Source: Pristiophorus japonicus
Lineage: Eukaryota
Direction of reading: 5' to 3'
Length of the DNA: 64,000 nucleotides
NCBI RefSeq assembly: GCF_044704955.1
Contig: NC_091980.1
Location: forward strand, 128,340,001 to 128,404,000
Within the stretch, counting starts at the first letter, position 1. Each line of letters opens with the position of its first letter. The translations under genes and the position numbers were made by a program. Under the pieces are notes generated by a model, which did no database searches, was not told the origin of the DNA, and was given only the letters and a program-made list of their open reading frames with translations. Positions 17,130 to 59,950 of this stretch are shown piece after piece.

Positions 17130-17426
17130 TAATAGAGGATTCATTTAAATCTGTGATTCTGTATATTTGAACTGTGTTTGAGGAAAGTTAGGACAATTGA
17201 GATCCTCATTGAGTTGTCAGCCAATGATGCTCATTCTTCAAAGATCTGACTGGCTCTGGGAATCCATCTCCCCTCCTCCCATTACTTGATTGGTGCTCTG
17301 AGAGGCTGCAACTTCTGATTGATCTGCAGGCTGCCACACCCTGGATTGTCCAGCAGTATAAATACAGACATATGTGGTTGATTGAATTTTTACAGGAGTT
17401 TGTTGCTTCCACAAAGTTTAGATTTG
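17130..17426 (+). promoter_or_regulatory. Ferritin copy 1 promoter: CCAAT boxes, TATAAA (17357-17362), degenerate IRE-like motif (17398-17426)
   Basis: Block conserved in all four copies; GCCAATG at ~17220 and reverse ATTGG at ~17290. A ~20-bp deletion removes the third CCAAT-type box seen in the other copies. Confidence 0.7.
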
Positions 17427-17508
17427 TGAAAATGCCTTTGAATGCACTGTACAGATTTTTTTATGAATAAAGTATATTTTGAAATTAAAAAAAAGAAAAA
17501 GAATCTAG

Positions 17509-19835
17509 ATGGCTTCCCAAGTGCGTCAGAACTGCCACCAGGACTGTGAGGATGCTGTCAACAAGCAGATCAACATGGAGTTCTATACCTCCTATGTTTA
17601 TCTCTCTATGGTGAGTTTTGTATTTTAGTCTCCATTGTGAAGTGGTCTATGTAATGTGAATTTACTAATCCAGCCCACCTATTCTGAGTATTTTGAATGA
17701 CTCACTTTCCTGGGCTTTTTTGAGCTTGTTGTTGAAGTTTATTTGGAATACATTCTGCACTCAATACATGGATTTCAGAATTTGTATCCTCATTCTAAAT
17801 CACTCCATGGCATTTCCCTACTTGCCTTTGCAATGAGGGGATGTAATAAAATTAGAGCTAGAACATTTTAGGGGGAAATCAAGAAGTACCCTTTCCTGTA
17901 TGTGTGGACGAAATCTGCAACACTGCTTCCCATTTCACCACCCCTCCCCACTAAAATTATTTAATAAAAAACTGGGTTTGATGCTGTGCCAAGGTTATCT
18001 GGAATACTTTATTTCCCCCACCCACCAATCTCCTCAGGAAAATCAAGGTTTTGATGCTGGACTCTGGTTTTTCATTGGGTAAGGGTATCAAAAGATTATC
18101 TGCATAATGTATGGACAAGCAACTCTCTTTATCTGCACACGGATGCAACAGGAAACCGTTGTAACGGCATTTAACATTCCACTTGTGCGCTCTGCCGACA
18201 TCACTTTGAAATGCTGATGTTCCTTTTGAATGTTGCCTGTTGAGCCTTGCTTTTAAGCACTCCACCCTGCCTCAGCTCCTGCTGCTACACCCACACAGTT
18301 CCATTGCCTCTCATAATTCATTAAAATGGCATGAGCAGTTATAGGAAGTAATCAACAAGCCTAATGCTCTTTAGATCTAGAGGACTAGAATTCAAGGATT
18401 AGAAGAGATGCTTCAGCTATTGGTTAGAGCAAACCTGCAGTACTGTAAGCATTAACAAATGTCAACTCGCTCTAATGGAGAAATCATTTAACTGGCATAG
18501 ACCAATCCCCAAGGGACCTGGATAATCGAGATGCCTGTATATACAAGTTCAGTGAGACTTTGAACCCTTGAAAGAAAGCAAGCAAAATTGAGCTTGAAGT
18601 TATGTACTGCACACGATGCTGGGTCTGCCATGCCTCACCCAACTACTGTGCTGATCTCTCCATAGTCCATCTACTTTGACCGGGATGATGTTGCCCTGTG
18701 TCACTTTGCTGAGTTCTTCAAGGAGCAGTCACATGCGAACCATGAGCATGCTGAGAAACTAATGGAATTCCAGAATTGGCGAGGAGGACAGATCGTCATC
18801 TTGTCTGACATCAAGGTTGGATTCAGTAAAGGAGTGGCCTTCTGTCTAGCTCCCCTTCGACTGATTGTTCCCAATACATGCTAAAGCAATTACTTCCAAT
18901 TTACAGCACACAGGCCATTCAGCCAAGCTGGTCTTTGCTGGTGTTTATAGTGCAGTAAGCCTCCTCTCCTTGCTTCATCTCACCCCCTCAGCATATCATC
19001 CTATTCCTTTCTCCATGCACTTGCCCAGCTTCCCAAAAATACATCTATGCAATTTGCCTCATCAATATCACTCCAGTGGTTGTGATAGCTCAATGTCAAT
19101 TTTATATTCTAACACACCGGTTCATGGTAAAGTAGACTTTTGCACCACTAATTTCCTTCAATACTTTCTAATTTGTTTAATCTATTGTAAGTGAACTGTG
19201 AGCATGTAATTTCTTTCCAGAAACCAGAGCAGGATGAGTGGAGCAATGGTCTGGTTGTGATGGAGAGCTCTGCAGATGGATAAGAATGTGAACCAGAGTC
19301 TGCTGGATCTGCACAAACTCTCCACTGGGAGCACTGACCCTCATGTAAGTTGTGAATAATTTAATGTTGGTTGTTGGGTTAGTTGGATATTGTGCTACCT
19401 TGCTGACCTTGAGCCTAATTAAAAGCTCTCCATGTCTAATAGCTTTCTGTTGGTCTCATTGGTCTGTATTTGGGAGCAGAGAGGAGGGACGGGGGAAGTG
19501 AGCCTACTGTGGACAGTGACTAGATATGTCTGATCCCAGGATCTGAGCATCTATTGTGCAGTAAGTTTAATCGAATGATGCAGTAATTCCATCAATCTCC
19601 ATTGTACCACTTGACTATCCTCTTGTTCAAAAGGATTAAAATCCAAACTCCTGAAGGGGAAGCTGACATTCCTTGATATCTGCTGCTGGACATAACTAGT
19701 TTCCCTCTTTCAGTTGTGTGACTTCCTGGAGACCCACTACTTGGATGAACAAGTGAAGATGATCAAGAAGCTTGGAGATCACATCACCAACCTGAAGAGA
19801 CTGGGAGCCCCTGAGAATGGCCTGGGAGAGTACCA
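17509..19835 (+). pseudogene. FTH1-like: Ferritin H/M-type pseudogene (copy 1); exons 17509-17610, 18666-18815, 19221-19344, 19714-~19835
   Basis: [20 protein letters not shown]...; GT-AG introns. Lesions: EEREH changed to ANHEH at the ferroxidase centre; 2-bp deletion in exon 3 giving TAA near 19281; exon 4 diverges after GEY, losing the stop and polyA region; retroposon tail in the 5' UTR. Confidence 0.92.
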
Positions 19836-20344
19836 GTTCAGACGAGTGCAGAAAAAGTCCTGGATTAATATCCTATTTTGTGTTTGGCCCTGGAATTAGC
19901 TGCTGTAGATCCTGTTCAGTTATTATTGCAGCTTGTTCAGTCACCGAACTGACCACTGCTGTTGTCGACGTTGTTAAGCTTTGTAGGCCGAGCAGCAACT
20001 GCTGTACAGACCAGCAATGTCTGAGTGCATTGAACCATGGGGACTACAATTGGGTGAGGAAGGAAAGCAACAGGTGGCAGCAGCTTGCTGTCACAGCTTC
20101 ATTGGTTAGTGTGGATACCCACGTGTAGTGGTTCTGGGACAGATTCTCGTGTACCTAATCCCACCTCATGTTTGAATAATTTGCCAACGTGCTCTGGGCT
20201 CGCATGGATAAGGTATTGAAGGGATACCTGTGTAACTGTACTCCCAACACATTATTCTGGAAGGAGTATATGTATTTCCTTACATGCGCCAAGTAAAAGG
20301 ACCAAGAAGTTAAACACAGACCTTTGAAAAAACATTTCCCCCAC

Positions 20345-57728: not shown

Positions 57729-59606
57729 TTAGTCACTCTCCCCCAGTGTGTGCTTGTCAAACAGGTACTCTCCCAGGCCAGTCTCAAGGGCTCCCAGTCT
57801 CTTCAGGTTGGTGATGTGATCTCCAAGCTTCTTGATCATCTTCACTTGTTCATCCAAGTAGTGGGTCTCCAGGAAGTCACATAACTGAAAGAAGGAAGCT
57901 AGTTATGTCCAGCAGTAGATATCAAGGAATGTCAGCTTCCCCTTCAGGAGTTTGTATTTTAATCCTCGAACTGGAGGATAGTCAAGTGGTGCAATTGAGA
58001 TAGATAGAATTACTGCATTAGATTAAATTTACTGCACAATAGGTAGGTGCTCAGATCCTGGGATCACTGGGACACATTTACTAGTCACAGTCCACAGTAG
58101 GCCAACCTCCCCCATCCTTTCCCACTGCTCACCAACAAAAAAAAAAAAGGGGGAGACTTACACAAAGCTATTATGCATAGAGATCTTTTAATTAGGCCCA
58201 ATGACAGTCAGGTAAATTGGAGACTGTGGGACCTAAAAGCCCACATTAAATCATTAACAACTTACATGAGGGTCAGTGCTCCCAGTGGAGAGTTTGTGCA
58301 GATCTAGTAGACTCTGGTTCACGTCCTTCTCCATCTGCAGAGCTCTCTGCATTGCCTCCAGACCATTGCTCCACTCATCCTGCTCTGGTTTCTGGAGAGA
58401 AAATTCCACAGTTTATTTACAATTGATGATACAATCATTAGAAAGTATTGAAGGAAATTAGGAGTCCAACCAAATTCTATTTTAACATGAACATATATTA
58501 GAATTTAAAATTTGCCATGATGCAATCACAACAACTGGAGCCATATTGATAAGGCAAATAGCAGAGATGTATTTAAGGGGAAGTGCATGGGGTGAAAGGA
58601 ATAGAACAATATGCTGATGGGGTGAGATGACACAAGGTGGGAGAAGGCTCGTGTGGAGTTATAAACACCAGCAAAGACCAGTTTGGCCAAATGGCCTGTG
58701 TGCTGTAAATTGGAACCAATTGCTTTAGCACATATGGGAACATTTAGTCTAAGAGGAGCCATACAGAAAGCCACTCATTTATTAAATCCAACCTTGATGT
58801 CAGACAAGATGATCCATCCTCCACGGCGATTCTGGAATTCCATCAGTTTCTCAGCATGCTCACGTTCCTCATGTGACTGCTCCTTGAAGAACTCAGCAAA
58901 GTGACGCAGGGCAACATCATCCCGGTCAAAGTAGAAGGACTGTGGAGAAATCAGAAAAGTATTTTTGTGCATTATTTCACAGGCCTATTATGTGTGCTGT
59001 ACATAAATTCAATCTCAAAATGTTGCTTTTTTTGAAGGGTTCAAAGGCTCACTGAACTTGTATGTATATTGTCACAGAAACAATATTTTTATACCCTTAC
59101 CCAATAATAAAGTTTGGCCCAGAATCAAAGCCATTTTTTGTGTGCTGTAGGAGGATGGGAAAGAAAGGGTTCCAGATTTCCACCACCCTTACAGGAAAGA
59201 ATACTTCTGAACTTCCTTTCTAAATGTCCAAGCTCTAAATTTTAAAAGATGACATCCTCCACTAAAAAAAAAGCAAGGTAATGAAAGTCCATGGAGTGCT
59301 TTATTATAAAGGATACAAGTTCTGAAATACATGCAGAGTGCAGAATGTATTCCAAATAACTTAACCACAAGCTCAAAAGAGCCCAAGAAAGTGAGTCATT
59401 AAGATTCAAGATACTCAGAATAGGTGGGCTGGATACAGCACCGAATTTAATAAATTCACATTACATAGTCTCCATTTTGAAGTGGTCAAATGTACAACAC
59501 TCACCATCGAGAGATAAACATAGGAGGAATAGAGCTCCATGTTGATCTGCTTGTTGACAGCATCCTCACAATCCTGGTGGTAGTTCTGACGCACTTGAGA
59601 AGCCAT
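57729..59606 (-). CDS. FTH1-like: Ferritin H/M-type subunit, 176 aa (copy 4); exons 59606-59505, 58939-58793, 58391-58266, 57884-57729
   Basis: [182 protein letters not shown] near 57588. Confidence 0.94.
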
Positions 59607-59621
59607 CTTGATTCTTTAATA

Positions 59622-59950
59622 CAAATCTAAACTTTGTTGAAACAACAAACTGGGATGTAACTTACCTTAAATGCCTGTATTTATGCTTCGGTATAATCCA
59701 GGGTGTGGCAGTCGAGATCATGAGTGACAGCCCTCAATACCCAATCAGAAGTTGCAGCCTCTCAGAGCACCAATCAACTAAAGGGATAGGGGAGATGGAC
59801 TCTCAGATCTTTGAAGAACGAGCATCATTGGCTGACAACTCAATGAGGATCTAAATTGTCCTAACTTTCCTCAAACAGAGTTCAGATATCCAGAATCACA
59901 GGTTAAAATAAATCCGCTACTCTTTAGGCAAATCAATTGGGAAAATCTTA
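59622..59950 (-). promoter_or_regulatory. Copy 4 promoter: CATAAA variant TATA (59680-59685), CCAAT boxes, IRE relic (59622-59650)
   Basis: Homologous to the other promoters. Confidence 0.68.

Follow-up and report, generated by a model that had tools for sequence, protein, structure and literature searches.

The window, i.e., the whole 64-kb stretch of DNA analysed here, contains four ferritin genes that follow a common plan of four coding exons (102/147/126/156 nt, 176 aa) preceded by a leader of about 50 nt. Copy 1, on the forward strand (17509..19838; exons 17509-17610, 18666-18815, 19221-19344, and 19714-19838), is a pseudogene that carries a 2-nt deletion in exon 3 (19221-19344) and whose last exon is cut off at 19838. 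Copies 2, 3, and 4 lie on the reverse strand and encode intact ferritins of 176 aa: copy 2 at 28059..30411 (exons 30411-30310, 29242-29096, 28710-28585, and 28214-28059), copy 3 at 38186..40357 (exons 40357-40256, 39370-39224, 38834-38709, and 38341-38186), and copy 4 at 57729..59606 (exons 59606-59505, 58939-58793, 58391-58266, and 57884-57729). Every splice site of these three copies is GT-AG, the PF00210 profile exceeds its cut-off in the second exon of both copy 3 and copy 4, and contigs from other organisms show the exons of copy 4 joined precisely at each of its three introns.

Each gene is preceded by a promoter with CCAAT boxes and a TATA-like box. The promoters of copies 2 (reverse strand, 30484..30670; TATAAA 30489-30484), 3 (reverse strand, 40437..40620; TATAAA 40442-40437), and 4 (reverse strand, 59680..59866; CATAAA 59685-59680) also contain an element that we take to be PBX/PKNOX-like, whereas that of copy 1 (forward strand, 17170..17362; TATAAA 17357-17362) lacks the 21-nt piece bearing it. 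The TATA-like box had been placed about 75-80 bp before the ATG, which holds for copies 2 and 4 (78 and 79 nt); in copy 3 the distance is 85 nt, and it grows to 152 nt in copy 1, where the alignment reveals a 67-nt insertion in the leader (forward strand, 17428..17494) with an AATAAA, an A run, and three upstream ATGs.

Between the TATA-like box and the ATG, the original prediction found no sense CAGTG, as we confirmed in the window's copies, and described four motifs as a broken iron-responsive element (IRE). Each of these motifs is in the sequence exactly as given, but spans 25 nt and not 29: 17398..17422 on the forward strand in copy 1 (17/23 letters against the IRE of a ferritin gene on contig C19; 2/2000 shuffles), and, on the reverse strand, 30431..30455 in copy 2 (14/23; 191/2000), 40377..40401 in copy 3 (17/23; 2/2000), and 59626..59650 in copy 4 (17/23; 1/2000). 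In copies 1, 3, and 4 the likeness to an IRE thus exceeds chance; the motif of copy 2 is the most decayed of the four, and its 5' half alone gave 24/2000 shuffles.

These four genes are a small slice of a ferritin array on contig C4, at about 127.8-133.4 Mb. The multi-copy array that had been proposed is indeed an amplified family, but its size goes far beyond four copies. A 24-mer from exon 4 has 295 matches genome-wide (reversed control, 0), and 99/100 among the matches listed fall in C4 127.78-131.36 Mb, while matches to PF00210 in the profile search extend to 133.40 Mb; we estimate about 290 ferritin copies in one block of 5.6 million bases. LINE and LTR elements sit between the copies, and one near-identical pair (L021/L022) is spaced by about 129 kb. 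The array shares 70-72% DNA identity with the two IRE-bearing genes of the same genome, and a tree restricted to the paralogs of the source genome has the topology (D,((P,Q),array)), with supports of 97/94 and 98/94.

A total of 33 of the 79 fully read copies are intact and the other 46 (58%) fail a strict intactness test; since the sample was chosen through conserved motifs, 33/79 may overestimate the real proportion of intact copies. The six ferroxidase ligands, which we take to be E27, Y34, E62, H65, E107, and Q141, are all found in 30/32 intact copies, copies 2-4 among them. Thus, the claim that the ligands were kept stands for these copies but not for copy 1, the pseudogene, where the equivalents of E61/E62 (EE ligands) have been replaced. 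Intact copies carry Lys at the position of human R23 (31/32) and Met at position 144 (30/32), and the window's copies have Asp at the A19 position. Matches in the PDB do not discriminate between the H and M subunits, so that the labels H, M, and L-like are presumptive. The array is under weak purifying selection (dN/dS of 0.39 among 16 intact copies); the row for gene E, shifted by one codon, was left out of this comparison. The 46/79 broken copies, and the closeness of their dN/dS (0.48) to that of the intact ones, speak against the explanation favored below.

Control by iron regulatory proteins (IRPs) has its textbook example in cytosolic ferritin, which normally has two or three genes and whose synthesis is normally coupled to the iron level by the IRE hairpin. 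The single ferritin genes on C14 and C19 keep perfect IREs, with Rfam scores of 46.2 and 45.2 (IRE_I, RF00037; threshold 34 bits). The same check of the array leaders, which had been suggested beforehand, agreed with the prediction, since no IRE was detected in the 64-kb window, even at E<=10, or in the 20 loci searched. Of the 9 and 15 places in the genome that match the canonical IRE pattern, none falls on C4; three further matches to the pattern (C5, C6, and C19:88 Mb) have no adjoining ferritin exon. An IRE-like fold was found in 0/121 leaders examined, and both positive controls folded. Each of the four window motifs takes a hairpin other than the IRE as its minimum-energy fold, and forcing the IRE upper stem costs +4.6 and +6.4 kcal/mol, compared with -4.7 for a real IRE. 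As judged from the sequence, none of the 121 leaders examined has a working IRE.

A relic of the IRE is recognizable in 102/121 leaders, its 5' half matching the C19 IRE in up to 14/14 letters, and 14/121 leaders are of a different type without relic; the claim that every copy has a broken IRE is therefore right in that none of the leaders examined has an IRE, but too broad in that these 14 lack even a relic. The AGU at loop positions 15-17 is required (PMC8466369). The 102 relics have A15 in 100, G16 in 1 (a doubtful alignment), and U17 in 5, and the A15-G16-U17 triplet within an IRE fold in 0/102. The letters of the C14-G18 pair persist in 72/102 and those of the C8 bulge in 66/102, the IRE fold being absent, and a five-pair upper stem is left in 7/102. 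The 5' arm retains 11-14/14 letters in 69/102 relics (0-24/2000 shuffles in the 8 copies tested), and the 19-mer downstream of the TATA box matches the paralog at 15-16/19 letters in 54/101 leaders. The motif thus corresponds, both in sequence and in its position behind the TATA box, to the IRE of the paralog, which supports its reading as an IRE relic at the cap-proximal position. Shuffle tests gave no significant match for a relic in genes D and Q. The type B leader resembles by eye the leader of the C19 gene Q, but with 258 and 256 of 500 shuffles we rejected this kinship. We also discarded a TTTGTTG/CAACAAA hairpin as a replacement for the IRE, because it occurs in copy 4 and some subfamilies and is missing from others; the block containing it shows no extra conservation (diversity of 0.259 vs 0.255 in the rest of the leader).

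The relic had been described as a fossil IRE with a mutated loop and stem. The fossil is there, but a deletion has probably brought post-IRE flank into the place of its 3' half, which fits the post-IRE sequence better than the IRE in 99/102 relics; the IRE would then have been killed by a deletion and not by point changes in the loop. In 8 copies, the 3' part was no better than chance against the 3' strand of the IRE (109-412/500 shuffles), compared with 2-109/500 against the post-IRE flank, a target that is longer and AT-rich, which biases the comparison toward the flank. It is possible, if somewhat doubtful, that the relic is instead a whole IRE that point changes have worn down in its loop (CAGUG to CAAAG) and its stem (TTGAA to TTAGA). 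The ungapped match of 17-18/23 letters in 28/88 leaders would suggest this, together with the scores of the whole motif: with three scoring schemes, the IRE target came out ahead in 65, 81, and 42 of the 102 relics, i.e., it was preferred in two of them; the chance-level fit of the 3' part to the IRE strand and the 99/102 preference for the longer, AT-rich flank target argue against it. The deletion reading is sensitive to gap costs.

The relic of the C19 gene P is significant against the C14 IRE (7/1000 shuffles) and not against the C19 IRE (110/1000). Because 0/121 leaders have an IRE-like hairpin and the broken gene P shares the same altered 3' part, the loss of the IRE appears to predate the amplification, as originally proposed. 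In an ancestral C19 cluster, one ferritin lineage would have lost the 3' strand of its IRE, probably when a single deletion removed about 22-25 nt and brought the 5' arm next to the sequence beyond the hairpin; the C19 segment would then have been transferred to C4 and amplified by segmental duplication, and copies may still be arising and dying.

Over 54 non-redundant copies, the promoter has a diversity of 0.124, about half that of the relic (0.259; intron, 0.37), and the TATA box and initiator-like letters directly precede the relic. Seven array-type retrocopies with splice junctions were found, produced by several subfamilies of the array, and two of them have their 5' ends 44 and 53 nt upstream of the ATG. 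These 5' ends make an upstream non-coding exon with a canonical IRE unlikely. The spliced retrocopies are, at the level of the genome sequence, a trace of germline or early-embryo transcription of the array, and not of its level or purpose. That the IRE-bearing genes also left retrocopies speaks against the favored explanation; these retrocopies keep full leaders. Among sequencing runs, no RNA data set was listed for this stretch. In addition, many distinct array-like spliced contigs were found in sequencing runs of three other organisms, the tissue of the runs being unstated.

We consider it somewhat probable that, the array leaders having no working IRE, the intact copies are translated free of IRP1/2, with an output set by the promoter and the copy number. 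No IRP would bind these leaders, the intact copies would likely be made regardless of the iron level, and their products would form active ferroxidase cages. Expression probably includes germ cells among other tissues, and the array may serve to stock iron or buffer oxidants in germ cells or early embryos, stages at which a need for ferritin would precede the arrival of iron. We read the array as a birth-and-death ferritin family that likely escapes IRP control and depends on its promoter and on gene dosage. A bolder version seems unlikely to us, namely that about 100 working genes form a parallel iron store freed from IRP repression, by deletion of the IRE, and from NCOA4-driven turnover, as suggested by the Lys or Gln now at the human R23 position and the Asp at the A19 position. 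Such a store would be a lock-in depot of egg or embryo, scaled by dosage; an entire fish lineage would share it, and no larger ferritin family would be known in a vertebrate.

The same IRP-blind and dosage-driven family could work in body tissues, as a bulk defence against oxidants or to withhold iron in liver, gut, or immune cells. Such a role, which has been proposed for the fthl27 array of the hadal snailfish, we regard as rather improbable here. The part of the snailfish study considered here reports a broadly expressed fthl27 array that lowers ROS in cells (PMC10746142), and the array-like contigs of the three other organisms fit such a role; however, the tissue of those runs is unstated, and a simple pattern found no canonical ARE in the P or Q promoters, the only ones scanned. 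Quite improbable is a largely neutral amplification, in which an unstable, repeat-rich block keeps duplicating and few copies matter. The broken share of fully read copies, the similar dN/dS of the intact and broken sets, the near-identical L021/L022, and the LINE and LTR elements would agree with it, but the conservation of the promoter over 54 non-redundant copies and of the ligands over 32 intact ones, a dN/dS well under 1, and the retrocopies from several subfamilies would not. Very improbable is continued control of the copies by IRPs, whether by way of an upstream exon that escaped notice or because the relic still binds to some degree. The transcription start is known here only indirectly, and the contigs of relative species stop short of the motif, but the TATA box and initiator-like letters lie just before the relic, the retrocopy L045 has its 5' end 53 nt upstream of the ATG, the retrocopies of the IRE genes do keep full leaders, and the recognition bases are lost.

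With its roughly 290 copies, a family that had lost the IRE by the time it was amplified, and that sits beside untouched IRE-bearing genes in one genome, would be a natural experiment on ferritin without iron feedback. The relic series from the C19 gene M to P and to the array may trace the death of a regulatory RNA, and the array leaders are readily usable in reporter tests. In humans, point mutations of the IRE cause disease (PMC8466369).

IRE-less ferritins and a 14-copy fish array were known already, and we found no printed match for the scale described here: the literature searched, supplements and subscription journals lying outside its scope, gave no account of a ferritin array of this size, and the main text of the whale shark genome paper does not mention ferritin. 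The array genes share with the vertebrate cytosolic ferritins H/M (PF00210) the four-exon 102/147/126/156-nt plan, the 176 aa, and the six ligands, but differ from them in having no IRE_I (RF00037), a leader of about 50 nt, and hundreds of copies, as well as at R23 (Lys), A19 (Asp, in the window's copies), and position 144 (Met). The fthl27 genes of the hadal snailfish are, like the array, a lineage-specific tandem expansion of a ferritin-heavy-like gene, with 14 copies vs about 290, broadly expressed and lowering ROS in cells; the part of the source considered makes no mention of the IRE (PMC10746142). Mammalian FTMT, according to the portion of the review used, is single and intronless and has a targeting peptide (PMC7760355), whereas the array genes have three introns, TATA/CCAAT promoters, and no N-terminal extension or presequence. 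The same portion presents mammalian Fthl17 as a multi-copy (six in mouse), germ-cell-expressed ferritin offshoot without ferroxidase activity (PMC7760355); the array, in contrast, keeps the ligands at the sequence level and is about 50 times larger.

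The window (G000:C4:128340001-128404000) contains four ferritin genes of four exons each; copy 1 lies on the + strand, and copies 2-4 lie on the - strand. Copies 2-4 have GT-AG splice sites and encode intact 176-aa proteins; copy 1 carries a 2-nt deletion in exon 3, a replacement of EEREH by ANHEH and a 67-nt insertion in its leader, and its 3' end is absent. The leader motifs that the original prediction read as broken iron-responsive elements (IREs) were found in all four copies, with a length of 25 nt, and an Rfam search, a check it had proposed, gave no IRE hit anywhere in the window at E<=10. 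A fragment at 14075-14286 resembles the stretch that precedes the ferritin promoters (72-75%) and adjoins no ferritin exon. Mobile-element frames lie between the copies (8900-13900, +; 7347-8570, -; 43600-47600, +) and comprise a GC-rich LINE with endonuclease and reverse transcriptase, a second reverse transcriptase and two LTR-element protease frames.

These genes are part of a genuine IRE-less ferritin family of very large size in this 5.92-Gb genome, probably that of a cartilaginous fish. A query with the copy 4 leader and exon 1 returned 344 candidates, and 40 of the 40 scored fall on contig C4 at 127.8-133.3 Mb; a PF00210 search gave 1034 candidates, of which 150 were scored, the majority again falling in this block. 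An exon-1 23-mer occurs exactly 132 times, and an exon-4 24-mer 295 times with <=1 mismatch (reversed control, 0), 99 of the 100 matches listed being inside the block. Some of the 295 matches are C19 genes and retrocopies that must be subtracted, and since these are few we estimate 280-290 array copies. An assembly echo is argued against by the mutual dS of ~0.14 between copies and by their presence in both orientations. Beyond the outermost copies, no more ferritin exons appear in ~15 kb on the left and ~30 kb on the right.

Intron-bearing ferritin genes with a perfect IRE number two among the 82 candidates scored, one on C14 (here called H) and one on C19 (here called M). Canonical IRE patterns gave 9 and 15 matches genome-wide and none on C4. 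We fetched 121 distinct array copies with exon 1 and leader, not counting 11 further loci whose exon 1 was out of range. A scan for hairpins with a C-bulge, a five-pair stem and any of a set of IRP-binding loops was positive in 0/121 array leaders and in both controls, H and M. The leaders comprise 102 of type A, with the relic of an IRE, 14 of type B, without it, and five unclear. G16 and U17, required for IRE regulation (PMC8466369), are nearly all lost in type A. Together with the missing hairpin, and by established IRE chemistry, this loss suggests that the array leaders are blind to IRP.

The 5' half of the relic matches the 5' arm of the M IRE at 14/14 positions in loci L154 and L162 and at 11-12/14 in the window's copies (equalled by 0-24/2000 shuffles); the 19-mer downstream of the TATA box agrees with M at 15-16/19 positions in 54/101 leaders. 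For the 3' half, the post-IRE flank of M outscores the IRE 3' strand in 99/102 leaders and is the only match to exceed shuffles, in some copies; whole-motif scores for IRE and flank are mixed. We favour, as more likely than not, an origin of the relic in which the IRE lost its loop end together with its 3' strand through a deletion. Judging by the dS of 1.31 between array and M, a neutral relic would not have stayed so M-like since their split, which points either to a late loss of the IRE or to a leader acquired from M by conversion. Relic diversity is 0.259, versus 0.255 in the rest of the leader (54 non-redundant copies).

The C19 cluster (93.05-93.21 Mb) contains Q, two broken array-like genes, a broken P, D, E, M and an L-like gene. 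Trees place D as sister to (P,Q) plus the array (support 97/94 and 98/94), and group (P,Q) with the array at 100/99. In the parts of the cluster covered by Rfam or the hairpin scan, an IRE was found at M only. The P relic (17/27 to the H IRE; 7/1000 shuffles) shares its altered 3' letters with the array relics, suggesting that the IRE break is likely older than the move to C4. Gene D (L061/L079) is an IRE-less ferritin with the ferroxidase ligand H65 changed to Q and a perfect 7-bp hairpin where the IRE would sit. Gene Q (L122/L123), also IRE-less, has the ligand E62 changed to D and has lost its exon-3 acceptor and stop. The divergent L-like ferritin (L039/L062, G000:C19:93189326 onward, +) has Lys at the E27 position and no IRE in the 4.3 kb scanned upstream. 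Gene E (L060:7023-7220 with L059 and L037, G000:C19:93128522 onward, +) is a four-exon ferritin whose 32-aa, Arg/Leu/Ala-rich, acid-free N-terminal extension resembles a mitochondrial presequence; it is likely a mitochondrial ferritin with introns, whereas mammalian FTMT is intronless.

Among the 79 copies complete in the fetched stretch, a sample picked through conserved motifs and so biased to intact copies, 33 pass a strict test of ATG, frame, stop and every splice site and 46 fail, some only marginally. The predicted retention of the ferroxidase ligands holds for all six in 30/32 in-register intact copies (leaving out L144, with a 3-nt deletion) and fails in copy 1 with its ANHEH. Mean dN/dS is 0.39 in 16 intact and 0.48 in 21 broken copies, arguing for weak purifying selection. 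The promoter (-260 to -80) has a diversity of 0.124, close to exon level, in the 54 non-redundant copies. At least two CCAAT boxes occur in 113/116 promoters, a TATA box in 83/116 and a PBX/PKNOX-like element in 67/116; D, P and Q share this element, and H and M are without it.

Seven array-type retrocopies outside the array (L040, L044, L045, L046, L047, L048, L182) have lost the intron at splice junctions, which argues that transcripts of array genes have been made and spliced in germ cells or the early embryo. L040 starts 44 nt and L045 53 nt upstream of the ATG, within or just ahead of the relic, and their 5' ends show no trace of an upstream exon. L045 (C11) is partly spliced, with intron 1 lost and intron 2 retained, and is immediately preceded by an unrelated CCAAT and TATA-like sequence. 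In three other organisms, contigs from four runs, guessed to be RNA, cover the exons and mostly not the introns of copy 4, joining precisely at its splice sites; the long pieces show 93-97% similarity, versus at most 50/60 for H and M. A copy-4-type ferritin is thus likely spliced, and diverse, in relatives. L041 (C20) and L043 (C6) are retrocopies of H, the former keeping the full leader, a 37-bit IRE and an open reading frame that carries a short deletion. Four separate inserts (L002, L003, L004, L005; C10, C12, C17, C18) each consist of nothing but the initial ~95 nt of the M leader, including a perfect IRE, and stop at the same U-rich spot, which suggests retroposition of a discrete short IRE-bearing RNA.

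We found no account of the C4 array in the literature; database annotations or supplements may list its genes. The ferritins described here have Lys at the R23 and Asp at the A19 position, both NCOA4 site residues (PMC11076521). Escape from ferritinophagy is only possible, because aliphatic substitutes partly keep NCOA4 binding and R23K is not among the changes tested in that study. IRE-independent ferritin is already known in FTMT, as are Fthl17, a germ-cell family of six genes that lacks ferroxidase activity (PMC7760355), and a 14-copy ferritin array in fish (PMC10746142); what is unexpected here is the size of the array and an IRE loss that can be traced.
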